From Candidatus Cryosericum sp. (GTDB lineage: Bacteria; Caldisericota; Caldisericia; Cryosericales; Cryosericaceae): 21,709 bases of DNA. The stretch covers positions 1-21,709 of the forward strand of contig JBNAWM010000002.1 of assembly GCA_049699855.1 (NCBI GenBank), in the 5' to 3' direction. A model generated the notes under the pieces. That model did no database searches. It was not told the DNA's origin and saw only the letters and a list, made by a program, of their open reading frames with translations. This document shows positions 329-18,662 of this stretch, piece after piece. Made by a program: the position numbers and the translations under genes. Position 1 is the stretch's first letter; each line of letters starts with the position of its first letter.

Positions 329-356
329 TTGACAGAAAAATAGATCCAACAATACT
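329..356 (+). promoter_or_regulatory. Putative sigma70 promoter of the fabH-like operon
   Basis: Perfect TTGACA at 329-334, 16-nt spacer and AATACT at 351-356, about 60 nt upstream of the first start codon. Confidence 0.55.
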
Positions 357-389
357 GACAGAAGTGAGAGATGATTCATGTTTGCCAGT
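354..389. promoter_or_regulatory. Candidate operator (extended imperfect palindrome), probably for the operon-encoded TetR
   Basis: Outer arms ACTGACA (354-360)/TGCCAGT (383-389) and inner TGA (365-367)/TCA (376-378) share one dyad centre (371/372). The element overlaps the -10 and the expected transcription start. Confidence 0.45.
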
Positions 390-418: not shown

Positions 419-1393
419 ATGTCAAAGATTACAGGGATGGGATTTGAGGTTCCAGAGAGGGTTTTAACAAATGCGTACTTCAGTGGTTATTTCAAGGAAG
501 ACCTGAACGGGTTTCTTGAGGGGATAGTCGGCCAGCGCGAGCGCCATTGGCTTGGCGATAACGAATCGGTCATCGATCTCTGCATTCCAGCAGCACAAGA
601 GGCCATGCAGGAGGCGGGCATTACGGCCGCAGACCTTTCAATGGTCGTTGTCTCATCTGACACCCACGAGTACATTTCGCCACCGACGTCGGTTGTTGTG
701 CAGGGCAAGCTGGGGGCGGCCAATGCCATGATCTTCGACCTTTCTGCATCGTGCGCATCCTTTGTCACTGCGCTTGCGGTCGTGGATTCATGGTTCAAGA
801 CTCACCCAGAGTTCAGGTACGCTTTGCTGATTGGCGAATACGGCATGACGAAGTATTTGGACAAGGACGACAAGTATACCGTTTCGCTCTTTGCTGATGG
901 AGCGGCGGCATTCATCCTTGAGAATACGGGTGACAGCATCATCGCATCCAAATTCATTGCGGACGGAAGCTATCACGATTACCTCGGCGTGTTTGGCGGG
1001 GGAACCAAGTATCCCATCAACGACGAGACGCTTGCAAAGGGACTGCACAGACTGCGCATTCTCAAGAAGTACGATCAGAATCCGAATCTGGTCGCGTGGC
1101 CCGGTCTGGTGAAGAGTTTGATGCAGGATGCGGGACAACCGCTTGAGGCAATTGACCTGATTTTGTTCACACAGATCAATCTAGCGGTCATCAAACAAGT
1201 GCTCGGAATTCTTGGCATTCCGGAGTCGAAGTCGCATTGGATCATGGACCGGTACGGCTACACTGGCTCTGCATGCATCCCGATGGCTCTCTATGATGCG
1301 CGCAGACAGAACAAGGTCAAGACGGGAGATCTGGTTGTACTTGTGGCATCCGGAGCGGGGCAGGCAATGGGTGCCATTGCCCTTCGTTTCTAG
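419..1393 (+). CDS. FabH/KAS III-fold enzyme 1 with non-canonical active site (Cys112, Thr251, Tyr281)
   Basis: Start re-set to ATG 419 after GGGGAAGGA. It has the KAS III signatures ITGMG..VPERVLTN, FDLSASCASF and LFADGAAA. FTQIN replaces PHQAN and GYTGSACIP replaces GNTSAASIP. 324 aa. Confidence 0.9.
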   Translation: MSKITGMGFEVPERVLTNAYFSGYFKEDLNGFLEGIVGQRERHWLGDNESVIDLCIPAAQEAMQEAGITAADLSMVVVSSDTHEYISPPTSVVVQGKLGAANAMIFDLSASCASFVTALAVVDSWFKTHPEFRYALLIGEYGMTKYLDKDDKYTVSLFADGAAAFILENTGDSIIASKFIADGSYHDYLGVFGGGTKYPINDETLAKGLHRLRILKKYDQNPNLVAWPGLVKSLMQDAGQPLEAIDLILFTQINLAVIKQVLGILGIPESKSHWIMDRYGYTGSACIPMALYDARRQNKVKTGDLVVLVASGAGQAMGAIALRF

Positions 1394-1415
1394 ACGGCTG
1401 ACTGTGGAGGGGAAC

Positions 1416-2405
1416 ATGAGGACAGTGAGGATTGCTGGAACCGGGCTGTATACACCGGCACATTCAATGCCGACCGAGGAGGTTGGCAAGCTGCTGGGAC
1501 TTGATCTCACACAGCAAATACAGGCGGGGGGTATCAAAGTCAAGAAGATCCTTGCAGACGATGAAGAAGCGTCAGACATGGCTGTTTACGCGGGGATGCA
1601 GGCTCTCAAGAACGCTGGGGTCAAACCCTCCGAGCTGGATCTGATCATCGTCAGCACAGACACGCCTGACTACATTTCACCTTGCACTGCCTCGATCGTG
1701 CAGCACCGCCTTCTGGCCAAGAATGCCGGGATCTTTGACACGAATGTCGCCTGCGCCGGCTGGGTTACTGCTTTGAACACTGCGACAAAGTATATCATGG
1801 CGGATCAGCACTATCATAAGGCGCTGGTCATCGGAACCTATGCAATGACAAGGTTCCTCAATTGGCATGACAAGGTGACTGCTCCAACATTTTCGGATGG
1901 TGCCGGTGCAGCGGTCCTTGTAGAGGATGAATCAGAGACGGGCGGCTACCTTGGATCGATGCTTTATGCCGATGGTTACTACTGGGATTATCTGGGTGTC
2001 TACCTCGGGTCGGCAAAACTGCCGACTGCCGAGTCGATTGCGAATGGCGAGCACAAGGTGCAATACAACCCCAACAAGAGGTTTCCCGATGTGAATTCGG
2101 TGCACTGGCCACGTCTCGTGCGGGAAACGCTTGAACAGGTCAAGTTGACACCTCAGGATGCGGATATGCTCTTGTTCACGCAAGTTCGCAGGAATACGAT
2201 TGAAGGAGTCATGAACACATTGGGTCTGCCAATGTCAAAGACGCACACCGTTATGGATAAATTCGGCTATACGGGCTCGGCGTGCGTGCCAATGGCTCTG
2301 CATGATGCACTTGAGAATGATCTGATTCACAAGGGCGATGTTGTCGTCATGGTAGCCTCTGGAGGCGGTTATGCCATGGCGAGCTATGCGATGCGCTGGT
2401 TGTAG
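1416..2405 (+). CDS. FabH/KAS III-fold enzyme 2 with non-canonical active site (Cys113, Thr255, Tyr285)
   Basis: Start re-set to ATG 1416 after GGAGGGG. Motifs IAGTGLYTP, FDTNVACAGW, FSDGAGA, FTQVR, GYTGSACVP and ASGGG. 329 aa. Confidence 0.9.
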   Translation: MRTVRIAGTGLYTPAHSMPTEEVGKLLGLDLTQQIQAGGIKVKKILADDEEASDMAVYAGMQALKNAGVKPSELDLIIVSTDTPDYISPCTASIVQHRLLAKNAGIFDTNVACAGWVTALNTATKYIMADQHYHKALVIGTYAMTRFLNWHDKVTAPTFSDGAGAAVLVEDESETGGYLGSMLYADGYYWDYLGVYLGSAKLPTAESIANGEHKVQYNPNKRFPDVNSVHWPRLVRETLEQVKLTPQDADMLLFTQVRRNTIEGVMNTLGLPMSKTHTVMDKFGYTGSACVPMALHDALENDLIHKGDVVVMVASGGGYAMASYAMRWL

Positions 2406-2416
2406 GGGAGGCTGAA

Positions 2417-3175
2417 ATGGCGTATGCGTTGTTCGAAGGGAAGCGGGTCTACTCTGAACGATTGGGAAATGGCGACAAGACAGTGATATTCGGTCATGGA
2501 AATCTCTCGTCAGCGAACTCCTGGCGCCTCATGATGCCTTACCTTCCCCTTGACCGGAAGAATGTCTTCGTGGACTTTCCTGGATTTGGCAAGTCAGACA
2601 ACATTCCTCCTGCCACCGTGGAGCATTGTGCTGACGCCCTCATTGCCTGGCAGAAGTATTGGCATTTAGAGCCGGCGGTTTATGTGGGGCACTCGATGGG
2701 TGCCGTGATTGGTCTCATGGCCGCACTGAAGGGAGCCCAGTTCTCCAAGATGATCCTGATTGGCTGCGGTCCGGCGGATGGGTATCCCATGACCGATGAG
2801 ATGAGAGCATCGTTTGAAATGCTCACAAAGAACCCAATGCTGATTGAGGCCATGACTCGCAAGAACAATGAACCATTCGGTTTGGCTGAGGACATTCTGG
2901 CAGAGATCGTGGCGGATGCTGTTCGTTGTATCCCTCAGGGCTACACGGAGATGGCTGATTCACTGGCTGGGGTTCGCATGGCGAATCGGCTGGACAGCCT
3001 TGACATTCCGATTACGTTTCTGCATGGCGACCGGGACACTGTGGTTCCTCTGGACTGGATACGGCCGACGGTGGCTGCAGCCCATGGAAAGCTTGTTGTT
3101 CTTGAGGGCCATGTTCACCTTCCCATGCTGGTCGAGCCAGAGCAGTTTGCTGCCGCGCTTGAAAGGGAGATATAA
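2417..3175 (+). CDS. Alpha/beta-fold serine hydrolase (esterase/lactonase/depolymerase-like)
   Basis: HGN oxyanion motif, DFPGFGKS, nucleophile elbow GHSMG, HGDRD (acid) and GHVH (His). RBS GGGGAGG. No signal peptide. Confidence 0.9.
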   Translation: MAYALFEGKRVYSERLGNGDKTVIFGHGNLSSANSWRLMMPYLPLDRKNVFVDFPGFGKSDNIPPATVEHCADALIAWQKYWHLEPAVYVGHSMGAVIGLMAALKGAQFSKMILIGCGPADGYPMTDEMRASFEMLTKNPMLIEAMTRKNNEPFGLAEDILAEIVADAVRCIPQGYTEMADSLAGVRMANRLDSLDIPITFLHGDRDTVVPLDWIRPTVAAAHGKLVVLEGHVHLPMLVEPEQFAAALEREI

Positions 3176-3181
3176 GGCATC

Positions 3182-4549
3182 ATGAGCCAGCGTCGCGCGG
3201 AGAATCCTGCAGTTCAGTCACAGAAGGCACCCGGTTCCATGGGAAGGTCGACTTCTCAGCGGATCCTTGACTCTGCACTGGACCTGTTCTTCGCGCGCGG
3301 GTATTCGCAGACATCGGTGGCGATGATTGCCCGGGAGGTTGGTATTTCAAACTCCGCCTTTTACAAGCACTTTGCGTCGAAGGAGGAGGTGCTGCTCGGT
3401 GTGCTGAAGACATTTGCCGATGACTTCACCGAAGCACTGGCCCAGGGCATGGAGCAGGCTGCCGGCCTGGAGGGCAAACTCCGCGCCTTCTATTCTACCA
3501 TTCTCGGGGTTGTTGGCCGTGACACCCACTTGTACCGTGTGTTCACCGAGACGGAGTTCAACGGATATGTTTTTGTCCGTGACTTCTATGCTAGGGTCGT
3601 TTCAATTGTTCATAGCCAACTCGAAGGACTGGTGGCTGCTGATCTGGACCTGGACAACGTGGGCTACTACCTTTTGGGATCCGTCTATTTCGTTGCCGTT
3701 AAGAAGACGCTGTGGGAAAACCTGTTTGCGCTCGACGGATTCTGCACGCAGCTGGTGGACTTTGCGTTGCATGGTATCGATGCACCCGGCGATGCCAGAG
3801 AGGACTTGATTCCGATTCCTGTTCCCAGCCTTCCCCTTGAACCCGTCGTGCGACTATCAAAGGGTGAAAGGACCCAGAAGAAGCTGCTTGCGTCCGCAGA
3901 ACGTATCTTCGGGAAGCAGGGCTATTGGAATTCGGATGTCTATAGCATCGCACGCGCTGCAGGAGTGGCACCGGGCACAACATATCTCTATTTTGAATCC
4001 AAGCTGGAACTGCTGTCACGATTGGTTGTCGAAGTGAATGATGGCTTGCGGCGCCATACTGCTCAGGCCGTGCACGGTCTGACGGATCGGCGTCTGATCG
4101 AAGTTGCAGCATTGGAGTCGTTCTGCAACTACATTCGGGAGCACAAGGACGCCTATCGCGTGGTTCGTGAAGCCGAGTTCGTCGACAAGGACCTTGGCCG
4201 ATGGTATTACACGCGACTGTCGGACCCTTATTCTGTTGCACTGGAGCGTGCAATGGTCGCAGGCATTATCCGGCCGGGCAACCCTGAGATCACTGCACTT
4301 GCTCTCATGGGAATTGGTCACTGGCTTGGACTGCGTTGGGTCCTGTGGAGTGACCAACCTGACGCCCGGGTATCGCCGTCGGCGCTGATGACTTCTATCT
4401 GTCTTATGTTGCACGGTCTGCAGGGAGCTGCGTCGAGAGCTGCCTTGAGACCAGGAGATAGCGATCACAAGGAGGTGAGATCAAGGGGCAAGCACAGACA
4501 GTCGCAAACAGCTCGTGGTACCGCCGCAGCAGGAGAACAGAATGGCTGA
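3182..4549 (+). CDS. Tandem (two-domain) TetR/AcrR-family transcriptional regulator
   Basis: Two complete HTH units: ILDSALDLFFARGY..IAREVGIS..FYKHFASKEE and LLASAERIFGKQGY..IARAAGVAPGTTYLYFESKLE. Each is followed by a helical ligand-binding domain, and the two are joined by a Pro-rich linker. Confidence 0.9.
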   Translation: MSQRRAENPAVQSQKAPGSMGRSTSQRILDSALDLFFARGYSQTSVAMIAREVGISNSAFYKHFASKEEVLLGVLKTFADDFTEALAQGMEQAAGLEGKLRAFYSTILGVVGRDTHLYRVFTETEFNGYVFVRDFYARVVSIVHSQLEGLVAADLDLDNVGYYLLGSVYFVAVKKTLWENLFALDGFCTQLVDFALHGIDAPGDAREDLIPIPVPSLPLEPVVRLSKGERTQKKLLASAERIFGKQGYWNSDVYSIARAAGVAPGTTYLYFESKLELLSRLVVEVNDGLRRHTAQAVHGLTDRRLIEVAALESFCNYIREHKDAYRVVREAEFVDKDLGRWYYTRLSDPYSVALERAMVAGIIRPGNPEITALALMGIGHWLGLRWVLWSDQPDARVSPSALMTSICLMLHGLQGAASRAALRPGDSDHKEVRSRGKHRQSQTARGTAAAGEQNG

Positions 4550-4591
4550 ACGTGAAGCGTCCTACTTTGAAAGACCAGGGGAGGTATGGCA

Positions 4592-6169
4592 ATGAAGAAG
4601 GTACTATCGCTTGTATTGGCAGTTGCACTGATCTTTGCTTCGTTTGCTGGCGTACGCTCAGCAAGTGCCCAAACAAAGGATTTCTTTATGGTTCTTCAGG
4701 TTGGCTTCAAGCAATATGCTCTGAATGGACTGCCCCGCACCTCGGATGTCGCTCCCGAAATCGTGGGCGGGCGCACTTTTGTGCCGGTTCGCCTTATCAC
4801 GGAGACGTATGGGGCTACCGTTGACTGGAATCCAGCAGTGCGCACGGTGACCATTAAGCTCGGCGACGTATCGGTCATGCTGACGATAGGCGTGAAGCAG
4901 GCGGCCATCGGCACTGACACGAAAGCCCTTGAGGCGGCTCCGTACATCAAGGATGGCCGTACCATGGTACCTGTGCGTCTCATCAGTGAAGCCTTTGGCC
5001 TGTCCGTTTACTACGATCCGCAGGCAAAGACCATTTCGATCAAATCAGCAACCACTGGTGCTGTTCCAGGTATCACGGGCAATCAGATCCTCATCGGATC
5101 GTTCTCGGTTCAGACTGGACCGTATGCCGTTGTCGGCGTTCCATTCTCACAGGGTATGCAGGCATACTTCGACATGGTCAATGATGCTGGTGGCGTCAAT
5201 GGCCGCAAGATCAAACTTGAGGTCGTGGACGATCAGTTCAACCCAGCCAACACCGTGACGGTGGTTAAGAAGTTCGTGAACGAAGACAAGGTATTTGCCG
5301 TGGTTGGCGGCGTCGGCAGCCCTGGATGTGCTGCTGTTGTGGATTACTTGAATGATCAGAAGGTGCCGTTCATCTACCAGGCGTCTGGGCTGTCTTCGTT
5401 GTCCATTCCGGCAAAGCAGTATGTGTTTGCCGTCCAGCCCAACTACATCAACGAAGGCCAGGTCATAGCCAAGTACGCAGCCAGCAACCTTGGTCTCAAG
5501 AACATCGCCGTTCTGTACAGCGATGACCAGGCAGGAAACGAGTGGCTCAGCGGAACCAAGCAGGGTGCAGCGAAATTCGGCGGCACGGTCGTCCTGGAAT
5601 CTCCATTCCCGGTCACCGAAACCGATTTCACACCGTATCTGCTCAAGATCAAGGCCAGCAATGCTACTGCCCTTGTCATCTATACAAGTTCTGTTGCAAC
5701 GGCGGGCCTTGCCGTCAAGACCGCGAAGTCATTGGGACTTACCCAGAAGATCATCCTTTCGTACGTGGCCGCCAGTATTGCTTCAACTGCTGGAGCAGAT
5801 GCAGCTGAAGGCGTTTATGTACCCGGCTGGGTGGACTTCTCGAATCCCAAGGATCCGGATGTCATCAAGTTCTTCTCGGTTTGGAACAAGTATTTCCCCA
5901 ATGCGAACCAGGCTCTCTATTCCTACGCCTGTGCCGGTTGGGTTGCCGCCGAGGTCTTCACCGAAGCAGTTCGCAGAGCCGGACCTTATCCAACGCGTGA
6001 TGCACTTGTCTGGGCTCTTGAGACGTTCAATGGCTGGTCAGGCGTTTTGGCAAAAGATATCAGCTACAGCCCGACGCAGCATTCTGGAAAGTACTCCCTG
6101 TTCTTCATGCAGGTTCAGAAGGGAGCGCTGGTCAAGGTTAGCGACTGGGTAAGCGTTCTGAAGCCGTAG
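4592..6169 (+). CDS. LivJ/LivK-type ABC substrate-binding protein with signal peptide and N-terminal copper-amine-oxidase-like (stalk) domain
   Basis: Start placed at ATG 4592 because GGGGAGG sits only 1 nt from ATG 4586. Signal peptide MKKVL...ASA|Q, two GRTxVPVRLI repeats of the stalk domain, then PGIT..ILIG..QTGP, GGVNGRKIKLEVVDDQFNP (type I binding fold). Confidence 0.9.
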   Translation: MKKVLSLVLAVALIFASFAGVRSASAQTKDFFMVLQVGFKQYALNGLPRTSDVAPEIVGGRTFVPVRLITETYGATVDWNPAVRTVTIKLGDVSVMLTIGVKQAAIGTDTKALEAAPYIKDGRTMVPVRLISEAFGLSVYYDPQAKTISIKSATTGAVPGITGNQILIGSFSVQTGPYAVVGVPFSQGMQAYFDMVNDAGGVNGRKIKLEVVDDQFNPANTVTVVKKFVNEDKVFAVVGGVGSPGCAAVVDYLNDQKVPFIYQASGLSSLSIPAKQYVFAVQPNYINEGQVIAKYAASNLGLKNIAVLYSDDQAGNEWLSGTKQGAAKFGGTVVLESPFPVTETDFTPYLLKIKASNATALVIYTSSVATAGLAVKTAKSLGLTQKIILSYVAASIASTAGADAAEGVYVPGWVDFSNPKDPDVIKFFSVWNKYFPNANQALYSYACAGWVAAEVFTEAVRRAGPYPTRDALVWALETFNGWSGVLAKDISYSPTQHSGKYSLFFMQVQKGALVKVSDWVSVLKP

Positions 6170-6207
6170 CGCTATTCGAGGAAGGGTCATCATCGACGAT
6201 GACAGTC

Positions 6208-6235
6208 TGCTCCGGGGGCGCCAGCCCCCGGAGCA
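6208..6235 (+). promoter_or_regulatory. Strong intercistronic stem-loop (mRNA stabiliser or attenuator) between the binding-protein and ATPase genes
   Basis: Perfect 12-bp stem TGCTCCGGGGGC (6208-6219)/GCCCCCGGAGCA (6224-6235), loop GCCA, no U-tract. Confidence 0.65.
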
Positions 6236-6250
6236 CAAAGAGGGGATATC

Positions 6251-6997
6251 ATGCTGACAATCAAGAACCTGACTGTACGCTTTGGGGGAGTGGTCGCCGT
6301 CAAATCTCTTGACCTGACGGTGAGCGATGGGGAGATTCACGCTCTGATCGGTCCCAATGGTGCAGGCAAGACAACCGTTTTCAACGCTATCTATCAACTG
6401 GTGCCGTATTCGGGCGATATCCAGTTTTCCGGAAGGGAATTGCGCGGCGTGCCGCGTCATCGCCTTGCGGGAATCGGGGTAACCCGGACGTTTCAGAACC
6501 TGAGCATCTTTCCCAGTATGACAGTACGCGAAAACATCCTTGTGGGACTGCACAGCAAATCCCGAAGTAACCTTCTCAGCGAGCTCCTGGGTATTGCTAG
6601 AGAACCAACGCAGCAGTTGGCGCGCACACTGGATTTCTTCGGCCTGACAGCCATTGCTTCCGCCTATGCGGCTATCCTTCCTTATGGTACCCTCAAGGTG
6701 ATCGAGCTGGCCCGCGCCTTCATCAGCAGCCCTCGTCTGGTACTGCTTGACGAGCCTGCTGCAGGGATTCCAACATCCGAGAAGGGAGCGCTCAAGTCTG
6801 TCATCCGCAAGATGCGCGACGCGGGAACCACCGTGCTTCTGGTTGAGCATGACATGGAACTGGTCATGGATATCTCGGACTCCGTAAGCGTCATGGACTT
6901 CGGGGAGAAGATTGCGGAGGGTACCCCGTCCGAGGTCTCGTCGGATAGGCACGTCATTGAGGCATACCTAGGGGAGGAGACCCATGCTGCGAGTTGA
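6251..6997 (+). CDS. livG: Branched-chain amino acid-type ABC transporter ATPase, LivG-like
   Basis: Walker A GPNGAGKT, RTFQN, LPYG signature, LLDEPAAG, VEHDM, C-terminal VIEAYLG. Confidence 0.92.
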   Translation: MLTIKNLTVRFGGVVAVKSLDLTVSDGEIHALIGPNGAGKTTVFNAIYQLVPYSGDIQFSGRELRGVPRHRLAGIGVTRTFQNLSIFPSMTVRENILVGLHSKSRSNLLSELLGIAREPTQQLARTLDFFGLTAIASAYAAILPYGTLKVIELARAFISSPRLVLLDEPAAGIPTSEKGALKSVIRKMRDAGTTVLLVEHDMELVMDISDSVSVMDFGEKIAEGTPSEVSSDRHVIEAYLGEETHAAS

Positions 6998-7691
6998 CAA
7001 GATTGTATCTGGGTATGGGCCCATCGATGTTTTGAACCATGTGTCCATAGGCCTGGATGAGGGGGAGATTGTAGCAGTGCTGGGAGCGAATGGCGCCGGG
7101 AAGACAACGCTCCTGCGGACAATTACTGGCCTCATCCATGTGCGCAAGGGCTCGGTGACGTTCGGTGACGAACTGCTGAATGGTCTGACGCCCGCCGAGA
7201 TTGTCAGAAAAGGGATTGCGCATGTCCCCGAAGGTCGGCACATTTTTCCCGATCTTAGCGTGGAACAGAACTTGCTGCTAGGCGCGTACAGCATGCCGCG
7301 CGCTGGGCAGAAAAGCAGGCTTGAGGCGATGTATGCCATGTTCGGTATTCTGGCTGAACGCCGCACTCAGGCCGGAGGAACACTCTCGGGTGGGGAACAG
7401 CAGATGCTGGCTCTCGCTCGCGGTCTGATGTCTAATCCGCGCTTGATACTGCTGGACGAGCCATCGCTGGGACTTGCCCCGAAGATCATCAGCAGTGTCT
7501 TTGAGACGCTGGCACAACTCCGCAGCTCAGGTGTGTCGATTCTGCTGGTTGAGCAGAATGCAAAGCGATCTCTCGAGCTTGCAGACAGGGCCTACATCCT
7601 TGTGACAGGCCAGGTGGCTTTGGAAGGTACTGCACAGGAGCTCAGCGGAAACGAGTTGGTGCAACAGCTTTATCTTGGAGGAACTCGATGA
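6984..7691 (+). CDS. livF: Branched-chain amino acid-type ABC transporter ATPase, LivF-like
   Basis: GANGAGKT, VPEGR, LSGGEQQM, LLDEPSLGLAP, VEQN. Confidence 0.92.
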   Translation: MLRVDKIVSGYGPIDVLNHVSIGLDEGEIVAVLGANGAGKTTLLRTITGLIHVRKGSVTFGDELLNGLTPAEIVRKGIAHVPEGRHIFPDLSVEQNLLLGAYSMPRAGQKSRLEAMYAMFGILAERRTQAGGTLSGGEQQMLALARGLMSNPRLILLDEPSLGLAPKIISSVFETLAQLRSSGVSILLVEQNAKRSLELADRAYILVTGQVALEGTAQELSGNELVQQLYLGGTR

Positions 7692-8566
7692 ATGCCAGTA
7701 TTCTGCTCAACCTTACATTGCGAGGACTTACAACAGGGGCTGTGTACGCGCTGGTTGGCATGGGCATAGTCCTGATCCTCCAGACAACCAACGTGATGAA
7801 CTTTGCTCAGGGTGACACGGGCATGTTCATTACCTATCTTGCCTTTTTCATGATTACGACGGCAAGGGTGCCGTATTCGCTGGTCCTGATATTGACGATC
7901 GCAGCTGGGGCTGTTGTCGGCTTGATTATCGAGCGTTTTCTGATGCGGTCGGTACGCTCCCGGTCGCACCTGTCACTGATCATGCTGACACTTGGAGTGT
8001 CGATGGTCTTTCAGGGACTTGCGGCATTTCTTTTCAACACTGAGCCACGGCTGTTTCCTCCGCTTGTGTCGGGGGACCCTGTTCAGCTGGGACCAGTCGT
8101 CCTGAGCAGGCAGGATATTGTTGTGCTCCTGGCGACCATCGTTGTCTTTGGAATTCTCTATCTCTTCTTGTATCGATCCAAACAGGGAGCAGCGGCGCGA
8201 AGCATATCACAGGACGAGTATGCCGCCCGGGTTCTGGGGATTCCTACGCCGTCGATCTACATGCTGGTCTGGGCTATCGGGAGTGCTCTTGCAGGTCTGG
8301 CTGCCCTGCTCACTGTTCCGCGTTTTTCTCTAGAACCATCATTCATGGGCCTCATCCAGGTAAAAGCATTTTCGGCTATTGTTCTCGGAGGGATGGATTC
8401 GGTGTTTGGAGCGGCGGTGGGAGGTCTCATTATTGGCGTCGTCGAGAATCTCGTCGCCTATCAATTCCCGGCCATCAAGGATAGTTTCATGTTGATCATC
8501 GTGGTCATCGTGCTGCTCGTTCTGCCCCAGGGCCTGTTTGGCAAACGGCAGCAGAGGAGGTTCTAG
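7688..8566 (+). CDS. livH: LIV-type ABC permease, LivH-like
   Basis: GAVYAL..G, MNFAQG, VLGG.DS..GA..GG motifs and multiple hydrophobic helices. ATGA overlap with livF. Confidence 0.9.
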   Translation: MNASILLNLTLRGLTTGAVYALVGMGIVLILQTTNVMNFAQGDTGMFITYLAFFMITTARVPYSLVLILTIAAGAVVGLIIERFLMRSVRSRSHLSLIMLTLGVSMVFQGLAAFLFNTEPRLFPPLVSGDPVQLGPVVLSRQDIVVLLATIVVFGILYLFLYRSKQGAAARSISQDEYAARVLGIPTPSIYMLVWAIGSALAGLAALLTVPRFSLEPSFMGLIQVKAFSAIVLGGMDSVFGAAVGGLIIGVVENLVAYQFPAIKDSFMLIIVVIVLLVLPQGLFGKRQQRRF

Positions 8567-9516
8567 TGGTTTCGTCGAAGAGCAGGCGGGCGGGTGTAAA
8601 CAGCGCATTGATTGCACTTGTCCTTCTGATGCCGCTGATCTTCCGGACGAAGTCGTCCATTATTGGCTATTTGAACATTGCCATGCTGTACGCCCTGGCA
8701 ACGCAGGGGCTCAACCTGCTCATGGGCTATGGGGGTCTTGTCTCACTCGGGCATGCCGCATTTATGGCTATTGGTGGCTACACGGCTGCTGTGCTGGTCA
8801 TGACGTATCACGTGAACATGTTCCTGGCGATTCTGGCGGGCGTGGCTGGCGCCGGTGTCTTTGGTCTGATCATTGGCTTTCCCTCTCTGCGTCTATCGGG
8901 ATTCTATCTCGCAGTCGCGACCATGGCACTGGGTAGTTCGACAGCCGATGTCATCGAGAGACTCAGCATCACTGGAGGGGATTACGGATTGTCCAACATC
9001 CCTTCACTGAGGCTCGGTCCGTGGACGCTTGCCTCTGATGCATCGCGCTACTATTTCTTCGTCGTTGTTCTTGCCCTTGTGTTTCTGGCCGTGCGCAATT
9101 TCCTGAACAGCAGGAGCGGGCGCGCCGTGCGTGCAGTTCGGGATTCAGAGATGACCGCCGCAGCCATGGGGGTCAACGTCGCGGCTTACAAGCTGATCAC
9201 TTTTGTCTTTGCCGCCTGTATTGCCGGGCTGTCCGGGGCCTTGTACGCCTTCACGATCTCGTACCTTCACCCGACGAATTTTGGGCTGACGTTTTCCATC
9301 GGGCTCCTTTCCATGAGTATCATAGGTGGTCTTGGAACCATTATTGGCCCGATTCTCGGAGCTCTTTTCTGGGTGCTGCTTCCCCTGATCATTGGTGGAA
9401 AACTGACCTATCTTGCAACAGTTGTCTTCGGTCTCAGCATCATCGGTTCTGTCGTGTTCTTGCCCAGAGGCCTGTCAGAGCTTGTAACGCGTCTGCAGGC
9501 CCGGCTAAAAATCTAA
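8566..9516 (+). CDS. livM: LIV-type ABC permease, LivM-like
   Basis: GLNLLMGYGGLVSLGHAAF, LRLSGFYLAVAT, GRAVRAVRDSE, IIGGLGT. GTG start overlaps the livH TAG. Confidence 0.9.
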   Translation: MVSSKSRRAGVNSALIALVLLMPLIFRTKSSIIGYLNIAMLYALATQGLNLLMGYGGLVSLGHAAFMAIGGYTAAVLVMTYHVNMFLAILAGVAGAGVFGLIIGFPSLRLSGFYLAVATMALGSSTADVIERLSITGGDYGLSNIPSLRLGPWTLASDASRYYFFVVVLALVFLAVRNFLNSRSGRAVRAVRDSEMTAAAMGVNVAAYKLITFVFAACIAGLSGALYAFTISYLHPTNFGLTFSIGLLSMSIIGGLGTIIGPILGALFWVLLPLIIGGKLTYLATVVFGLSIIGSVVFLPRGLSELVTRLQARLKI

Positions 9517-9534: not shown

Positions 9535-10725
9535 ATGAATGTTGGTATTCTTGGCAGTTACAGTTCAAAGTGCGGCAAGCTGGAGGCAAAGAGCATCTAC
9601 GATCTCATCATCGAGGCTGGGAGAGGTGCGATAGCCGATGCCCAGATTGACCCCAGAGAGATCGACGGGGTGTGGGTCGGCAATTTCAATTCAGGCTCGT
9701 TCAACAACCAGGAGCACCTGGCCCCGTGGGCGGTTGAGATTGATCCAGCTCTGCTCTACAAGCCATGTGTGAAGGAGGAGGCTGCCTGCGCCTCGGGTTC
9801 TGCGGCTATCCGTGCGGCTCGTCTTGCCATTCAGGCAGGCGAAGCGCGGTTTGCACTTGTCATCGGCGTAGAAAAGATGACGTCGCTTGACAGGGATGGT
9901 GTCACGCGTGCTCTAGCCATGGCATCTTACTGGCCCGACGAGGGCGGCCAGGGCGTAAGTTTTCCAGCGCTGTTCGCAATGTGGTCAAAGAGTTATCGTG
10001 AGCACTATGGGTATACCGATGAGCAGATGGACCTGTGGCAGGGTATGGTGCATGCAAAGAATCGCGACAACGCGATGCACAATGAGCTTGCTCAGATGTA
10101 TGGCAAGCCAAGCAGCCTCGAATTCGCACTGCACGTTTCGGAGAAGAACCCCTTGATCGCTGACCCACTAAAGCTTACTGACTGCTCTCTGGTCAGCGAT
10201 GGAGCGGCTGCTCTTGTTCTCGGATCCGTCGAAGACGTGAAGGCCCTCAAACAGACGGTCGTCGAAATCAGTTCGCAAGTCCTTGTCAGCGATCACATGC
10301 AGTCCAGCAAACGTGAACTGTGGCACAACGTGGCAGGTCGCATGGCACTTGAGGCAGCCTACAAGAAGGCCGGCGTGACTGTTGCCGACATTGATTGCGC
10401 GGAGATCCATGACTGTTTCACGATTAATGAGCTTCTTACCTATGAAGCCATGGGATTGTGCCCGGAGGGAGAAGGAGGTCGGCTCATTGAGCGCGGCGGC
10501 GTTGTCCAGGCAGATGGCACGTGCCCCATCAATCTCAGTGGCGGTCTCATTGGAAAAGGACATCCGGTTGGAGCTTCAGGGACAGCCATGCACGTCTACG
10601 TTGCCAGGCAGCTCGAAGGTCGGCCACTCGGCCTTGGAACCAAAGACCCGGAGGTGGGAGCAGTCTTCAACGTAGGTGGTTCCAACGTAAGCAACTTTGC
10701 ATCCATACTCAAGCGAGTGAAATAG
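9535..10725 (+). CDS. Thiolase, SCP2/archaeal-type (acetyl-CoA C-acyltransferase family)
   Basis: EAACASG (nucleophilic Cys), GVEKM, DCSLVSDGAAA, EIHDCF, GHPVGASG and FNVGG, with no C-terminal CxG. RBS AAGGAGG. Confidence 0.9.
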   Translation: MNVGILGSYSSKCGKLEAKSIYDLIIEAGRGAIADAQIDPREIDGVWVGNFNSGSFNNQEHLAPWAVEIDPALLYKPCVKEEAACASGSAAIRAARLAIQAGEARFALVIGVEKMTSLDRDGVTRALAMASYWPDEGGQGVSFPALFAMWSKSYREHYGYTDEQMDLWQGMVHAKNRDNAMHNELAQMYGKPSSLEFALHVSEKNPLIADPLKLTDCSLVSDGAAALVLGSVEDVKALKQTVVEISSQVLVSDHMQSSKRELWHNVAGRMALEAAYKKAGVTVADIDCAEIHDCFTINELLTYEAMGLCPEGEGGRLIERGGVVQADGTCPINLSGGLIGKGHPVGASGTAMHVYVARQLEGRPLGLGTKDPEVGAVFNVGGSNVSNFASILKRVK

Positions 10726-10734
10726 GAGGAAACC

Positions 10735-11520
10735 ATGTCAAAGGAATACGGTCTGAAAGGCAAGGTTGTCATTGTCACTGGTGGAGCGGCAGGAATTGGC
10801 CGTGCCACTGCAAAGCGCTTCGCCGAGGAAGGAGCACGCGTTGCCATCTGGGACATGAACGCAGAGGCAGGTGCCGCGACGCTGGCCGAACTGAAACAGA
10901 TGGACATTGATGCAATGTTCCAGCAGGTGAACGTTGCGGATGCCGAGGCCGTCGAAAAGGCGGTCTCCGATATTGTGGCAGTGTGGGAGCATATCGATGT
11001 CCTGATCAACAACGCGGGAATCACGCGTGATGGTCAGTTGGTCAAATACAAGGACGGCGTTCTCGCGGGGACCATGACCGATGCCAACTTCGACGCAGTG
11101 ATCAATGTGAACCTCAAGGGGGTCTTTGTCGTCACGCGCGCTGTTGCTCCCCGCATGATCGACCAGCGGCACGGCGTCATTTTGAGCGCGAGCTCTGTCG
11201 TTGCGGCCTATGGTAACTTTGGTCAGACCAACTACGCCGCTACCAAGGCTGGACTCATCGCCATGACGAAGACGTGGTCACGCGAGTTGGGAAAATACGG
11301 TATCCGCGTGAACGCGGTTGCGCCCGGCTTTACAATGACAGATATGGTCGCCGCAATGCCCGAGAAAGTGCTGGAAGGCATGGTAGCTCATACGCCTGTG
11401 GGTCGCATGGGCGCTCCCGAGGATATTGCGAACGCATATGTATGGCTTGCCTCTGATCAGGCTGCATTTGTTCATGGCACCACGCTGGCTGTGGACGGGG
11501 GTCTTGTTCTGGGAACGTGA
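10735..11520 (+). CDS. Classical SDR, FabG/PhaB-like 3-oxoacyl-CoA reductase / 3-hydroxyacyl-CoA dehydrogenase
   Basis: TGGAAGIG, NNAGITRD, GNFGQTNYAATK (YxxxK), VAPGF. Asp at the end of beta-2 (AIWD). Confidence 0.9.
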   Translation: MSKEYGLKGKVVIVTGGAAGIGRATAKRFAEEGARVAIWDMNAEAGAATLAELKQMDIDAMFQQVNVADAEAVEKAVSDIVAVWEHIDVLINNAGITRDGQLVKYKDGVLAGTMTDANFDAVINVNLKGVFVVTRAVAPRMIDQRHGVILSASSVVAAYGNFGQTNYAATKAGLIAMTKTWSRELGKYGIRVNAVAPGFTMTDMVAAMPEKVLEGMVAHTPVGRMGAPEDIANAYVWLASDQAAFVHGTTLAVDGGLVLGT

Positions 11521-11582: not shown

Positions 11583-12881
11583 ATGCAGTCGGAATCGTGG
11601 ACAAACAAGCTTGTTTCAATGGAAGAGGCGGTCGGAAGAATCGAGTCCGATGATACCATTGTGGTCGGAATGGCAGCGGCACAGCCACAAGGCTTTCTGT
11701 CGTCGCTTCACGGCGTCCGCCAGGGCGTTCACAACGTCAAGGTGGTGTCATGTCTGCTGCTGAAGGATTATTCCTTTCTGGCTGGCGTGGGAACTGGCCC
11801 CGATGCTGTCTTTCGGGCAGAAAGCTGGTACTTTGGGACTCCCGAACGAGAGCTCTACAAGAAAGGACTCATTTCCTTCATTCCCAACAATCTGCACAAT
11901 GCAGGAAGAGAGAAGATTCAAGCCGAACATATCAACGTTTTCGTGGGTACCGCCACGCCTCCGGACAGCCACGGTTTCATGTCTCTGTCTCTGTCACTGG
12001 TGTACGAGAAGGAGATGATCGAATGCGCTGACCTTGTCATTCTGGAGATCAACGAGAACCTCCCCAGGACATTTGGAGATACCCAGATCCATGTCGATGA
12101 TGTTGACCTCCTCGTCAGGAATGATACATCCCTGCTGACGGTCCCCTCGATCGAGGCAAGTGAGGTGGAACAGCGTATAGGAGAGAATATTGCAGAGCTT
12201 ATCGATGATGGAGCAACCCTGCAGATTGGCATCGGCGGCATTCCCAACGCGATCATGAAGTTTCTTTCAGGCAAGAAGCATCTGGGCATTCATACGGAAA
12301 TGATCACCGATGGTATCGTGGATCTCGTGGAAGCTGGCATCATTGACAATACGCAGAAGACTCTGCACAAGGGAAAGATTGTCGGTACGTTTGCCATGGG
12401 CGGCCAGCGCCTCTACGATTTCATCGATCAGAACGTCAGCGTCGAGATTCTTCGAGGTGCCTACGTGAACGACCCCTATGTGGTGGCGCAGAACGATCAC
12501 ATGGTGAGCATCAACACGTCGCTCCAGGTGGACCTCACAGGGCAGGTATGCAGTGAATCCATTGGATACCGGCACTATACGGGAACGGGTGGACAGCTCG
12601 ATATGCACCGAGGCGCAACCTTGTCACGGGGAGGCAAAGGCATCATCGCGCTACGCTCGTCGGTAAAGAGTGATGAGATTTCGACCATTGTGCCGATGTT
12701 GAGCCCGGGCAGTTTCGTCTCTGTACCACGGCAAGACACAGACTGTGTCGTCACGGAATATGGCTTGGCGCATCTGAAAGGAAAGAGTGTGCATGAGCGC
12801 GCGCTTGCTCTCATCGCGATAGCGCACCCGAAGTTCAGGGAAAGCCTGATGTCGGAGGCAAAGAAGCTCGGCGTGCTATAG
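11583..12881 (+). CDS. Acetyl-CoA hydrolase/transferase family, 4-hydroxybutyrate CoA-transferase (AbfT/Cat2)-like
   Basis: TLQIGIGGIPNA, LGIHTEM (catalytic Glu), VDLTGQVCSE, GTGGQLD, VVTEYG.A.L.GK, IAIAHPKFR. Confidence 0.9.
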   Translation: MQSESWTNKLVSMEEAVGRIESDDTIVVGMAAAQPQGFLSSLHGVRQGVHNVKVVSCLLLKDYSFLAGVGTGPDAVFRAESWYFGTPERELYKKGLISFIPNNLHNAGREKIQAEHINVFVGTATPPDSHGFMSLSLSLVYEKEMIECADLVILEINENLPRTFGDTQIHVDDVDLLVRNDTSLLTVPSIEASEVEQRIGENIAELIDDGATLQIGIGGIPNAIMKFLSGKKHLGIHTEMITDGIVDLVEAGIIDNTQKTLHKGKIVGTFAMGGQRLYDFIDQNVSVEILRGAYVNDPYVVAQNDHMVSINTSLQVDLTGQVCSESIGYRHYTGTGGQLDMHRGATLSRGGKGIIALRSSVKSDEISTIVPMLSPGSFVSVPRQDTDCVVTEYGLAHLKGKSVHERALALIAIAHPKFRESLMSEAKKLGVL

Positions 12882-12934: not shown

Positions 12935-12971
12935 GAGGATGGCGGCCCACCGGGCCGCCATCCTCCTTTCT
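12935..12971 (+). terminator. Terminator-like hairpin ending the operon
   Basis: Perfect 14-bp stem GAGGATGGCGGCCC (12935-12948)/GGGCCGCCATCCTC (12952-12965), 3-nt loop, followed by CTTTCT. Confidence 0.7.
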
Positions 12972-13042
12972 ATGCTGTTGTTGGAGTTCTCCATCGGTGC
13001 GCTATACTGAAAAACAATACATCTTAAATTGGGAGACAACGC

Positions 13043-13900
13043 GTGAACAAGGCAGTGATACTGGAAGGAGCGGCATTCGGTGCTCTTGTGGGAGGAGCCG
13101 CTGTTGAGGGATTTCTTCGTGAGCCATTTCAACTTGATGTAGAGCGGTTGTCGATAGTTTTGCCATCGCTGCCGCCTGAATTTGGCGGGCTGAAGGTGGC
13201 ACAGCTGTCAGATCTCCACATTCACAGCGTTTCGAGGGCATATCGCATGGCAGTCGATGTCATCCGCAAGGAACAGCCGAACCTTGTCGTCATTACGGGC
13301 GATCTGGTGGATCGTGCCGAGGAAACGTCGGCATGCATTGCATTCCTAAGCCAGCTGCGCGCTGCAACGAGAGCGCCAGTGATCGTCGTGCCCGGGAACT
13401 GGGATCATCGGGCTTTTCCGACGAAGCAGAGCATTGCTGCATGGCACAGGCGCCTGCAGGCCGAGACGGGGATTCGAGTTCTCGCAAATCAGAATGTCGT
13501 CCTGCATCGGCATGGAGGCCAGATATGGCTGGTTGGCACGGACGACCCGTACTTTGGGCATGCTGACCTGGATGCCAGCTTCAAGGGTGTCCCCGACAGC
13601 GCATTTGCGCTTGTGCTGACCCATGCTCCTGAGGCGTTCGAAGAACTGGCACAGCGCCCTGCCGCGCGGGTGGTCCTTGTAGGCCACACTCACGGAGGCC
13701 AGGTCCGCCTGCCATTCATTGGCGCGTTGCGGGTTCCCTCGCGATATGGCACACGCTTCGCGCAAGGGTTGTACAAGTTGGGCGACACGTTCTTCTACGT
13801 CAACGCCGGGATGGGCACGAGCCACCTTCCCGTGCGGTTCCTGTGCAGGCCGGAACTGACGTTCATTACGCTGTATAACAGGGCACGATCCCTGTCATAG
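13043..13900 (+). CDS. Calcineurin-like metallophosphoesterase (YkuE/YaeI-like)
   Basis: DLH, GDLVD, GNWD, THAP and GHTHGGQ motifs. GTG start after GGGAG. Confidence 0.88.
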   Translation: MNKAVILEGAAFGALVGGAAVEGFLREPFQLDVERLSIVLPSLPPEFGGLKVAQLSDLHIHSVSRAYRMAVDVIRKEQPNLVVITGDLVDRAEETSACIAFLSQLRAATRAPVIVVPGNWDHRAFPTKQSIAAWHRRLQAETGIRVLANQNVVLHRHGGQIWLVGTDDPYFGHADLDASFKGVPDSAFALVLTHAPEAFEELAQRPAARVVLVGHTHGGQVRLPFIGALRVPSRYGTRFAQGLYKLGDTFFYVNAGMGTSHLPVRFLCRPELTFITLYNRARSLS

Positions 13901-14673: not shown

Positions 14674-17058
14674 CTACGGGGTATATGTTATCGTTATCGT
14701 CTGGGTTGCTGCATCCCATTGGACGTCCAGTGAGAGCGACTCCGCAACAAACCGGAGAGGAAGAAGTGTCCTCCCGTTCCGGATGATGGGCACGACGCCG
14801 GGATTGCTGTCGATACTGACCGACTGACCGTTCAAGGTCGCCATGTTCTTGCCGATCCACAACTCCAGCGTCGTTTCCTTCCGTACAATAGTGACTTTCT
14901 GTGCCGAAGGGTCCCAGGCGACGGTTCCTCCGACCGACTCCACCACTGCCCGTATGGGGAGAAGGGTGCGCGAATTCAGGATGATGGGAGCTGCCTCCAG
15001 AGAGGTGGGTTTCCCATCGACGTACAACATTGTGCCACCAACTACCAGTTGAACGGTACCTTTCGCAGAGGAGTCGGGTGCATAGCGGAACATACCGCCG
15101 CCAGCCGTTCCAGCGTAGAGGATGTCGGGAGACAACGGGTCGATCGCCAGAGAGACAACGTCCTGGTTGGTGAGTCCAGCGTTCAGAGCGGTCCAAGTGG
15201 CGCCGCTGTCGGTAGAGCAGTGAACGCCACCGGGTGCGGTTCCGGCATAGAGGGTCGTGGGCGTGACGGGGTTGATGCTGAGAGTATGGATGTTTCCATC
15301 GGCGAGTTCGGTCACGGTCCACGTGTCCCCACTGTCGGTCGAATGAAACAGCCCACCCCTCCTGCCGTCTGCTCCAATGCTGCCGTACCTGCTGACATAG
15401 ACGTTCTCGGGGGTGAGTGGATCAACGATAAGTGAAGACACCTGGTCGCCCGTCATGCCTGCGTTCACTGCTGTCCAGTGACCGCCGCTGTCCGTGGACC
15501 GAAAGGCACCGGCATTGCTGCCCACGTACAAGGTAGAGGGCGTGACGGGGTTGATGGCAAGGCAGGAGAACGCCATCCTCCACGTGGTCAGCCCCGTGTT
15601 CACCGGCGTCCATGTCGTGCCACTGTTCGTCGATCGATAGACGCAGCCGCTCGCAGTGCCGGCGTCTGTACCGACATATACGACACCGGAGGTATGAGGA
15701 TCGACGGCACAACACAGGACCCTCTTGTCCGTGAGACCTGTGGAGCAGTTCTTCCAGCTCGTCCCGCCATCGGTGGATCGGAAGATCCCGTCATCCGTGC
15801 CGACGTACAAGCTTGTGGGCGTGATGGGATCGACAGCGATGGTCAGGATGTTGCCATTAGTAAGACCAGTACTTGCTCCTGTCCAGGTCGCACCGCTGTT
15901 GGTGGAACGGAAGACGCCGACGTTCGTTCCGGCGTAGAGTGTCGCAGGTGTCCTGGGGTCAATCGCGACCTGCTGCACCTGTATACCGGTGAGACCGATG
16001 CTTGCCGCCTGCCAGGAGCCACCGCTGTTTGTGGTACGGAAGACGCCCCCGTTGGTGCCGACATACAGTTTTCCTGAAGTCTTTGGGTCAGGGACGAAGC
16101 AACTGCCTACTTGGCAGGCGAGCCCGGTGTTCACCGCTTTCCAGGAGCCACCGCTGTTGGTCGAACGGAAGACCCCAAGGGCGGTGGCAGCATAGACGGT
16201 ACTGGACGTGTGTGGGTCGACGACAACAGCGCGGACGGCTTTGCCTGTGAGGCCCGTATTTACCGGTGTCCAGACCGCTCCGCTGTTCACAGACCGGAGA
16301 ACGCCGTGCGTGCCGGTACCAGCATAGAGCGTGGAAGGGGTCATGGGGTCGATCGCAAGAGCAGACACATCCCCGCCCTGAAGTCCCTTGTTCACCGCCG
16401 TCCAGTGCACGCCGCTGTCGGTGGAACGGCAGACGCCACCTCCATTGGTGTTGGCGTATAGCGTGGCAGGCGTCCTGGGATTGATCACGAGAGAGAAAAT
16501 GTAGCTTGTGGCGATGCTCGACTTCAGCAGCGTCCAGTGGTCGCCACCATCCGTCGAACGGAAGACGCCGTTTCCACCCGCATACAGCGTAGAGGGGGTC
16601 TTCGGATTGATGGCAAGAGAGATGATACCCAGTTGACCTGCCGATTCAGGATTGGTAATGCCTGTGTTGATCGCGGTCCAAGTGTCACCACTGTTGACGG
16701 ACCGGAAAACGCCGTTACCGGTTCCTGCATATAGCGTGGAAGGAGTTATGGGGTTGACCGCCAGACAGGTCACACTGAGATTGGTGAGCCCCACGTTGAT
16801 GGCTCTCCAGGTGGTGCCGCTGTCGGTCGAACGGTAGATGCCGTTCCCGCCCGCGTACAGTGTGGAAGGAACCTTCGGATCGATGGCAAGGCACTGAATG
16901 TTGCTCCCATATAAGGGAAGCCAGGTCCAGGCGCTTGCGTCCACCGCGCGTGCAGCGGGGGCGTCGACCAGCACGCTCGAAACGCTCAGGGCCAGACACA
17001 AGATCAGGATCATCATAGTGGCAGTACGCACACTGCCTCGTACTTTCGTCATCCTCAT
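14674..17058 (-). CDS. Secreted Asp-box (BNR) double beta-propeller protein with C-terminal copper-amine-oxidase-like stalk domain
   Basis: Start re-set to ATG 17058, 6 nt after GAGGAG. It has a signal peptide, 14 repeats of AIDP.TPSTLYAG..GVFRSTDSG.TW (13 with a full S/T-x-D/N-x-G-x-x-W box), and C-terminal RTLLPIR/GRTLLPLR repeats. Confidence 0.88.
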   Translation of the reverse strand: MRMTKVRGSVRTATMMILILCLALSVSSVLVDAPAARAVDASAWTWLPLYGSNIQCLAIDPKVPSTLYAGGNGIYRSTDSGTTWRAINVGLTNLSVTCLAVNPITPSTLYAGTGNGVFRSVNSGDTWTAINTGITNPESAGQLGIISLAINPKTPSTLYAGGNGVFRSTDGGDHWTLLKSSIATSYIFSLVINPRTPATLYANTNGGGVCRSTDSGVHWTAVNKGLQGGDVSALAIDPMTPSTLYAGTGTHGVLRSVNSGAVWTPVNTGLTGKAVRAVVVDPHTSSTVYAATALGVFRSTNSGGSWKAVNTGLACQVGSCFVPDPKTSGKLYVGTNGGVFRTTNSGGSWQAASIGLTGIQVQQVAIDPRTPATLYAGTNVGVFRSTNSGATWTGASTGLTNGNILTIAVDPITPTSLYVGTDDGIFRSTDGGTSWKNCSTGLTDKRVLCCAVDPHTSGVVYVGTDAGTASGCVYRSTNSGTTWTPVNTGLTTWRMAFSCLAINPVTPSTLYVGSNAGAFRSTDSGGHWTAVNAGMTGDQVSSLIVDPLTPENVYVSRYGSIGADGRRGGLFHSTDSGDTWTVTELADGNIHTLSINPVTPTTLYAGTAPGGVHCSTDSGATWTALNAGLTNQDVVSLAIDPLSPDILYAGTAGGGMFRYAPDSSAKGTVQLVVGGTMLYVDGKPTSLEAAPIILNSRTLLPIRAVVESVGGTVAWDPSAQKVTIVRKETTLELWIGKNMATLNGQSVSIDSNPGVVPIIRNGRTLLPLRFVAESLSLDVQWDAATQTITITYTP

Positions 17059-17340
17059 GCCATGCTCCTCTCGTGAATCTTGATCCACAAATGGTGGATC
17101 CATGCCCGGTCACCGGGGGCGGTCATCGTGCCATATCGGCGTCTCTCAAGAACATAGAATACACTTCCTGCAATAAAGTGTAACGGGGGGGGCTTGTCAA
17201 CTTGTGGGCAGAGTAATGCCCAGACGCTTCCTGAACGAACTTGCTGTGATGTCGCGGCAGGCGTTGATATCATCTACTGCGCCGAAGTGACTGGACTCTG
17301 ACATATCTGACTGCAGACATTGCGTGTTCCCAGTCAACTC

Positions 17341-17379: not shown

Positions 17380-17390
17380 AAGGGGTGATG

Positions 17391-18661: not shown

Positions 18662-18662
18662 C

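Follow-up and report, generated by a model that had tools for sequence, protein, structure and literature searches.

In FabH, the β-ketoacyl-acyl carrier protein (ACP) synthase III (KAS III), residues His244 and Asn274 form the decarboxylation pair, according to the available part of PMC4807248. A Cys-His-Asn triad is also present in CorB. The 3-hydroxy-3-methylglutaryl-coenzyme A (HMG-CoA) synthase has a Glu-Cys-His-Asn tetrad (PMC12960953, in excerpt), and its glutamate serves as a general base (PMC13412983, likewise in excerpt). CerJ and ChlB3 are KAS III-fold acyltransferases that, in the accessible text of PMC9573744, transfer through the cysteine without decarboxylation. The Ralstonia enzyme PhaZ1 was described, in the part of PMC3430594 at hand, to convert poly(3-hydroxybutyrate) (PHB) into 3-hydroxybutyryl-CoA (3HB-CoA) by thiolysis. 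Here, a 21,709-nucleotide stretch of Candidatus Cryosericum sp. (GenBank assembly GCA_049699855.1, contig JBNAWM010000002.1, positions 1–21,709 of the forward strand; hereafter the window) was analysed. It contained two adjacent genes for FabH-fold proteins, enzymes A and B, which have Cys-Thr-Tyr (C-T-Y) instead of Cys-His-Asn (C-H-N). The C-T-Y enzyme is proposed to be a CoA-dependent ester thiolase that splits (R)-3-hydroxyacyl oligomer-CoA via an acyl-cysteine, with a probability of roughly 40%.

Active-site residues and fold of enzymes A and B

The nucleophile was retained in both proteins, as a preliminary description of this DNA had stated, at Cys112 of enzyme A (codon TGC at 752) and Cys113 of enzyme B (TGC at 1752). 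The threonine of the FTQ motif was Thr251 (ACA at 1169) and Thr255 (ACG at 2178), and the tyrosine of the GYTGSAC motif was Tyr281 (TAC at 1259) and Tyr285 (TAT at 2268), respectively, also as described. The alignment had been called unambiguous, and a colinear HMMER alignment to E. coli FabH (PDB code 1ebl) indeed placed FTQ on PHQ and GYT on GNT. Enzymes A and B were 37–38% identical to each other, and both matched two Pfam KAS III domains. Their scores were below the family cut-offs, with 174 and 196 bits against the NCBIfam fabH model TIGR00747 (cut-off 292) and 191 and 221 bits against PRK09352 (cut-off 249).

The AlphaFold model of enzyme A (predicted local distance difference test score of 96) matched FabH structures with template modelling scores of 0.88–0.93. 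The alignment to 2ebd had a Z score of 44.2 and a root-mean-square deviation of 1.5 Å over 304 residues, in agreement with the FabH fold stated earlier. The identity of enzyme A to solved relatives was never above about 30%, and no solved structure with a C-T-Y triad was present among the PDB sequence- and structure-search matches.

A single clade with a rebuilt pocket

The homologue search gave 4461 matches among 8000 scored candidates. All 121 aligned sequences (enzymes A and B plus the 119 other matches listed) shared the C-T-Y residues, with the cysteine invariant among the C-T-Y homologues, and the combination is therefore not due to chance. A representative set of 152 rows (150 cluster representatives and enzymes A and B) contained 24 C-T-Y rows, 103 C-H-N rows, and 25 fragments or others. 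Residues Asp81, Tyr141, Asn223, Trp227, Cys286, and Ser311 were found in 79, 83, 92, 88, 96, and 92% of the C-T-Y rows, respectively, and each in 0% of the C-H-N rows. The Cys286 position was occupied by alanine in 11 of 20 Bacteroidota loci, and Cys286 is therefore not essential. Judged from these residues, the pocket appears to be rebuilt beyond the two changed positions of the triad. Three outliers of the clade were noted: P0231 is S-P-Y and has lost the nucleophile, P0126 is C-N-Y, and P0143 is C-T-Y without Asp81, Asn223, and Trp227.

A tree of 85 rows was obtained by a quick search, with support from the Shimodaira–Hasegawa-like approximate likelihood ratio test (SH-aLRT) only and with the triad columns included; the C-H-N proteins were represented in it by a draw of 22 from 91 rows and by two genomic ones. 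In this tree, 53 of the 54 C-T-Y rows formed one clade (SH-aLRT 97), with P0143 as the sole exception, and the PRK06840 family was its sister (SH-aLRT 84). Enzymes A and B fell into different subclades within the clade. On this tree, both a recent duplication and independent convergence of the two were rejected. The same double change in divergent copies had been taken as independent evidence; this argument did not stand, since both copies inherit the change from one old clade and the pair is no sign of repeated change. The idea of a selected subfamily was supported. Databases name the relatives ‘3-oxoacyl-ACP synthase III’, as was expected of automatic fabH annotation.

A pattern scan of genomes gave at least 600 pattern matches, at least 586 of them relatives. 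The best 80 came from numerous bacterial phyla, with two or three from archaea, and the carriers among them included Acidobacteriota, Bdellovibrionota, Myxococcota, Chloroflexota, Bacillota, Caldisericota, and Thorarchaeota. An even sample of Bacteroidota, the phylum of Maribacter, contained 43 carriers in 301 genomes; the motif was present in all 20 carriers retrieved, once as GYIG. The literature search, with most subscription journals and supplements outside its coverage, found no description of a Cys-Thr-Tyr triad or of the operon, and none pairing ‘Cys-Thr-Tyr’ with ‘ketoacyl’. The C-T-Y clade is apparently a widespread and uncharacterised KAS III-fold variant.

Relation to fatty-acid synthesis

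The genome of the window contained an ordinary FabH with PHQ and GNS motifs (G000:C97), adjoining fabZ, and a fabD-fabG-acpP-fabF cluster (C4). The acpP, fabD, and fabF genes were found in none of 103 C-T-Y loci and not in the window, whereas 3 of 3 control loci were positive. A housekeeping FabH role is made unlikely by the separate C-H-N FabH and by the 0 of 103 loci linked to fab genes. With the His/Asn pair lost as well, a decarboxylative ketosynthase is very unlikely, in accordance with the preliminary description. By the features tested, namely residues, family scores, and linkage, the C-T-Y clade is not a FabH.

A role as an atypical FabH in the priming of fatty-acid synthesis would agree with the nearest solved structures, which are FabH. 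It would also agree with three genomes (G019, G023, and G027; 99–100% complete) that contained fabD and fabF and no C-H-N FabH, the C-T-Y gene being their sole full KAS III-fold match. However, the Thermotoga maritima control, with fabD and fabF, likewise had no PF08541 match; the gap is not unique to these genomes and therefore does not force a FabH role. Together with the loss of the decarboxylation pair, the ordinary FabH in the same genome as enzymes A and B, and the absence of adjoining fab genes, this makes the priming role highly improbable. Genomes G019 (L137:5699-10153), G027 (L136), and G023 had a fabZ-fabD-fabG-acpP-fabF cluster with a further short-chain dehydrogenase/reductase (SDR).

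Gene neighbourhoods of the C-T-Y enzymes

Relatives of the same class had the gene set of the window in another order with one C-T-Y gene, and most loci contained a single copy. The first set comprised 77 loci outside the lineage of the window, many of which end at contig ends (L043 was from an unpublished genome, G056); kin among the loci make the counts non-independent. A ligase was present in 70 of these loci, a serine hydrolase in 55, a transporter in 52, a GNFGQ-type reductase in 35, and MaoC in 17, the last two never together. In 20 separately drawn Bacteroidota loci, the ligase, hydrolase, and reductase were present in 19, 19, and 17, respectively. The models nearest to the ligases were those of long-chain or generic acyl-CoA ligases, and at least two ligase subfamilies were represented; the window and five other loci had a CoA transferase and no ligase. 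The importer varied among TonB receptor, sodium symporter, major facilitator superfamily, and ATP-binding cassette (ABC) types. The locus context is catabolic, with an importer, esterases, a CoA ligase or CoA transferase, and a reductase or hydratase. FabG/PhaB reductases and MaoC/PhaJ hydratases both use (R)-3-hydroxyacyl thioesters, and a product of this kind is therefore indicated.

In L058:10417-12802 and similar loci (13 of 80, and 8 of 20 in the Bacteroidota set), the place of the TonB receptor was occupied by two proteins with no Pfam match, one secreted (520 aa) and one a lipoprotein (170–190 aa), which may form a new uptake pair of the outer membrane.

The OleABCD cassette combines four broad classes of enzyme (KAS III-fold protein, hydrolase, AMP ligase, and reductase) that also occur together in the C-T-Y loci, which might encode a biosynthetic, non-decarboxylative condensing enzyme. 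This is quite improbable in view of the importers in 52 of 77 loci, the repressors in the operon, and the CoA transferase that can replace the ligase. OleA was a distant match (E value of 1e-12; Z score of 35.5 versus 44.2 for FabH), and the reductase, at 247 aa, belongs to the FabG type, whereas OleD is an extended SDR. No Ole model was present for OleB, OleC, or OleD among the NCBIfam matches listed, and the window has no AMP ligase.

Alternatively, the C-T-Y enzyme could be a FabH-fold 3-ketoacyl-CoA thiolase or a retro-aldol enzyme that cleaves C–C bonds. The esterase would free the hydroxy acid, the ligase would add CoA, the reductase would oxidise the product, and the C-T-Y enzyme would cleave the 3-oxoacyl-CoA. 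In that case, Tyr281, Thr251, and Asn223 would make up a new oxyanion site, and Asp81 would have the role of the glutamate in HMG-CoA synthase. This completes a simple four-step pathway, Asp81 lies at the position of the HMG-CoA synthase glutamate, and only 7 of the 77 first-set loci had a nearby thiolase match, the other 70 having none. However, a separate thiolase, of two types, was present in the operons of the window and of 4 of 6 class relatives (the other two regions were cut short or incomplete). With such a gene in the window and in 11 of 103 loci, the thiolase step is already covered there. The 17 MaoC loci had no reductase to make the 3-oxo substrate, and the C–C-forming relatives, as compared from partly available literature, retain histidine at the triad positions. 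A thiolase role is therefore regarded as unlikely. In some class relatives (L108:180-2436 in G024, G004:C38, and G012:C47), an HMG-CoA-synthase-like gene adjoined a thiolase.

Possible link to polyester degradation

A TIGR01840 esterase was present in three loci, one of which also exceeded the cut-off of the model for extracellular PHB depolymerase type 1, and a PhaZ7-like gene was present in six (best PDB match PhaZ7, E value of 2e-19); the two families are mutually unrelated. Of the 23 TIGR01840 genes above cut-off in 77 genomes, 3 lay inside the loci versus 0.05 expected from locus and genome sizes, and 6 of the 13 PhaZ7-like genes in 76 genomes did so versus 0.02 expected. For both families, 9 of 36 genes were inside C-T-Y loci versus about 0.07 expected. 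These loci were from Acidobacteriota, Myxococcota, Bdellovibrionota, and Bacteroidota and, several of them being kin, amount to about four or five events. PhaC-like synthases were present in 2 of 77 loci. PHB is considered to be at least one substrate source in some lineages, and not necessarily the general one.

In L020:9960-15311 and L035:2244-7122, two PhaC-like synthase genes and a ligase lay directly 3’ of the C-T-Y gene, in L035 with two additional MaoC genes, and the genome of L020 had a near-cut-off PhaZ7 (430 of 450 bits). The lipase-like neighbour c123 was rejected as PhaZ7-like on comparison. A search with NF050060 gave no match anywhere, controls included, and the accessible text of a Bdellovibrio depolymerase paper (PMC4834554) contained no link to the C-T-Y enzyme.

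A catabolic acyl-cysteine transferase could also act on other substrates, such as long-chain acyloxyacyl or amide lipids and oligomers of 4-hydroxybutyrate or other polyesters, or in acyl-CoA thioester exchange. The kinship of the ligases to long-chain or generic models would suit this, and most carriers are without a known PHB depolymerase. In the alignment to E. coli FabH, Ser87 replaces Phe87, presumably the residue that limits chain length in FabH. However, where diagnostic neighbours were present, they were related to polyhydroxyalkanoate (PHA), namely depolymerases and PhaC, and the neighbour clusters contained no recurrent gene specific to any other pathway. Activity on these other substrates is rather unlikely.

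Proposed mechanism

The suggestion of an acyl-cysteine transferase in the preliminary description holds as the most plausible class for the clade. Ester thiolysis fits the gene context, and we infer all of its chemical steps around the observed fold, residues, clade, and gene context. Loss of His and Asn removes the thioester-enolate site, so both decarboxylative condensation and thiolase-type cleavage lose a requirement. The retained cysteine and the gained aspartate would be well suited to attacking an ester and protonating the alcohol that leaves, with Asp81, at the position of the HMG-CoA synthase glutamate, supplying the acid/base.

The enzymes would be ping-pong acyl-cysteine transferases for the salvage of (R)-3-hydroxyacyl esters, with Asp-Cys-Thr-Tyr at the positions of Glu-Cys-His-Asn in HMG-CoA synthase. 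The importer, whose genes are present, would take in short 3-hydroxyalkanoate oligomers or related 3-acyloxyacyl compounds, which the operon hydrolases may trim. The free carboxyl end would be activated by the encoded CoA ligase or, in the window, by the CoA transferase. Cys112 would then attack an internal ester of the oligomer-CoA, and the alkoxide leaving group would be protonated by Asp81 or Tyr281, releasing (R)-3-hydroxyacyl-CoA. Transfer of the acyl group from Cys112 to CoA would give a second 3-hydroxyacyl-CoA with no extra ATP. The PhaB/FabG-like reductase or MaoC hydratase and then the thiolase, for which genes were found, would consume the product and so pull the reaction. Enzymes A and B probably differ in the chain lengths or oligomers that they prefer.

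Several points weigh against ester thiolysis, in addition to the three genomes without a C-H-N FabH and the 70 loci without a nearby thiolase, which fit other roles. The transfer from ester to thioester is uphill or close to equilibrium and needs a pull, and ester thiolysis could be superfluous beside the cytoplasmic esterase that the operon also encodes. The roles of Asp81, Thr251, Tyr281, and the other residues were assigned by alignment. The CoA-adenine contacts Trp32, Arg36, and Arg151 (PMC4606726) were poorly conserved in the aligned C-T-Y proteins. Depolymerase-like genes fall in a minority of loci (9 of 77), with kin not independent, and the PhaZ7-like genes scored about 97 bits against an equivalog cut-off of 450 and may be other lipases. 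In the even Bacteroidota sample, in which up to 9 candidates were scored for each genome, none of the 43 carriers had a TIGR01840 match above cut-off or a PhaZ7-like gene, and the lone TIGR01840 match was in a non-carrier; genome-level co-occurrence with PHB depolymerases was not found in this phylum. The genome of the window had no PhaC_N or Esterase_PHB (PF10503) match. The mutual exclusivity of reductase and MaoC, strict in the 77 loci, did not hold in the 20 Bacteroidota loci, 3 of which contained MaoC, each time together with the reductase, and in the first set it is confounded with lineage.

In a wider and more tentative reading, the Asp-Cys-Thr-Tyr clade may be an ‘ester thiolase’ that conserves the energy of the polyester bonds, with several CoA thioesters obtained from an imported (R)-3-hydroxyalkanoate oligomer per single activation. 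If so, decomposers, predators, fermenters, and some archaea would consume PHA or related hydroxy-acid esters of other cells by an unrecognised ATP-saving route. Ester thiolysis would then explain the cheap use of polyester fragments by organisms without their own PHA system, bear on carbon turnover and the fate of PHA bioplastics, and offer a biocatalyst from esters to CoA thioesters. The clade shows a catalytic arrangement that is new for this well-studied fold, and its annotation as FabH makes metabolic models place it in fatty-acid synthesis. The family is testable in the cultured carriers Maribacter thermophilus, Pyrinomonas methylaliphatogenes, Archangium gephyra, and Sporomusa malonica.

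Organization of the operon

The promoter candidate and the terminator-like hairpin bracketed the whole set from enzyme A to the CoA transferase (Table 1). The promoter candidate was preserved in four correctly oriented relatives; of the eight aligned rows, the window, L005, L010, L012, and L013 were used, and L004, L006, and L008, in the wrong orientation, were left out. The conserved motif just downstream is a candidate TetR operator. The hydrolase showed a weak likeness to PcaD and intracellular PHA depolymerase models, under every cut-off, and a classical thiolase stood in the place of the thiolase-domain protein in relatives.

Table 1. Features of the C-T-Y operon in the window
Feature	Position	Strand	Remarks
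Promoter candidate, sigma-70 type	329..356	+	TTGACA-16-AATACT; best of 10 matches
Conserved motif GTGAGAG(A/G)TGATTCA	367..381	+	Just 3’ of promoter; window, L005, L010, L012, L013
KAS III-fold enzyme A	419..1393	+	324 aa; Asp81, Cys112, Tyr141, Asn223, Trp227, Thr251, Tyr281, Ser311
KAS III-fold enzyme B	1416..2405	+	329 aa; signature as in enzyme A (Cys113, Thr255, Tyr285)
Alpha/beta hydrolase	2417..3175	+	GHSMG serine motif; no obvious signal peptide
Double TetR-domain regulator	3182..4549	+	PF00440, two stretches
ABC importer, leucine-isoleucine-valine (LIV) type	4586..9516	+	ATPases and permeases by open reading frame (ORF) sequence and clustering
Importer binding protein	4586..6169	+	Pfam match
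Importer ATPases	6251..6997 and 6984..7691	+	
Importer permeases	7688..8566 and 8566..9516	+	
Thiolase-domain protein	9535..10725	+	PRK07516, above cut-off
FabG/PhaB-like reductase	10735..11520	+	GNFGQTNY group
CoA transferase	11583..12881	+	Acetyl-CoA hydrolase/transferase family; occupies the place of the acyl-CoA ligase of other loci
Terminator-like hairpin	12935..12975	+	Operon end

Upstream of the operon, the end of a ferritin-like gene (1-153) and a terminator (180-200) were present, and a metallophosphoesterase (13043-13900) lay downstream. A gene at 14674-17103 (-) encoded an 809-aa secreted protein with about 15 ‘A.DP.TPSTLYAG’ repeats; its C-terminal domain resembles that of the ABC binding protein, and its guanine plus cytosine content is higher (0.60). 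Read from ORFs, a GntR-like regulator with an ABC ATPase and permease (17385-19427, +) and an S9-type peptidase (~19600-21649, +) followed.

Comparison with known systems

When compared with FabH/KAS III (E. coli 1hn9/1ebl and A. aeolicus 2ebd; TIGR00747), the C-T-Y enzymes shared the fold, the length, Cys112, and the FxDG and GxG motifs at about 30% identity. In E. coli numbering, partly taken off the alignment, they differ by the substitutions His244Thr, Asn274Tyr, Thr81Asp, Phe87Ser, Ala216Asn, Leu220Trp, and Phe304Ser, and Arg249 is lost. The C-T-Y genes also lie outside fab clusters, with scores under the family cut-off.

The PRK06840 family (NF005308, ‘3-oxoacyl-ACP synthase’), the sister group, shares an acidic residue at 81 and Tyr at 141, but has His/His at the triad positions, and enzymes A and B scored 144 and 173 bits against its cut-off of 315. 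No close solved structure of this family was found in the structure search. A PRK06840 gene was observed in C-T-Y operons (L037:3873-4985, L079:2953-3978, and L086:3060-4136), nearby in L093:1-798, and also in L105; a second ligase accompanied it in L037, L086, and L093, and it is possibly a parallel enzyme for another substrate.

HMG-CoA synthase resembles the C-T-Y enzymes in its acidic residue 31–33 positions before the cysteine and in non-decarboxylative acyl-cysteine chemistry. Asp81 aligned with the glutamate of HMG-CoA synthases (L096 and L095) and of the PRK06840 family. In contrast, its His and Asn are replaced by Thr and Tyr in the C-T-Y enzymes, the identity was 17–22%, and the score was 44 bits against the family cut-off of 353. 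No mevalonate genes were present among the annotated neighbour clusters.

PqsBC, like enzymes A and B, consists of two adjacent FabH-fold genes with altered triads, but in the available part of PMC4807248 PqsB is without any catalytic residue and PqsC keeps the histidine, whereas enzymes A and B both retain the full signature. OleA has a catalytic histidine, which the C-T-Y enzymes do not, and is a distant match.

CerJ and ChlB3, as far as partly available sources allow a comparison by motif and numbering, have a Cys-His-Asp triad, with the histidine near the Tyr281 position by numbering, whereas GYTGSAC has neither His nor Asp; they are biosynthetic and 17–18% identical to the C-T-Y enzymes. 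PhaZ1 belongs to another enzyme family and acts on granules inside the producer cell, whereas the C-T-Y protein is a thiolase-fold enzyme behind an importer. The proposed type of reaction, from polyester and CoA to 3HB-CoA, is shared with PhaZ1 in the excerpted source. To the extent of these partial sources, PhaZ1 is thus a precedent for the reaction, and CerJ and ChlB3 are a precedent for acyl transfer on the KAS III fold.

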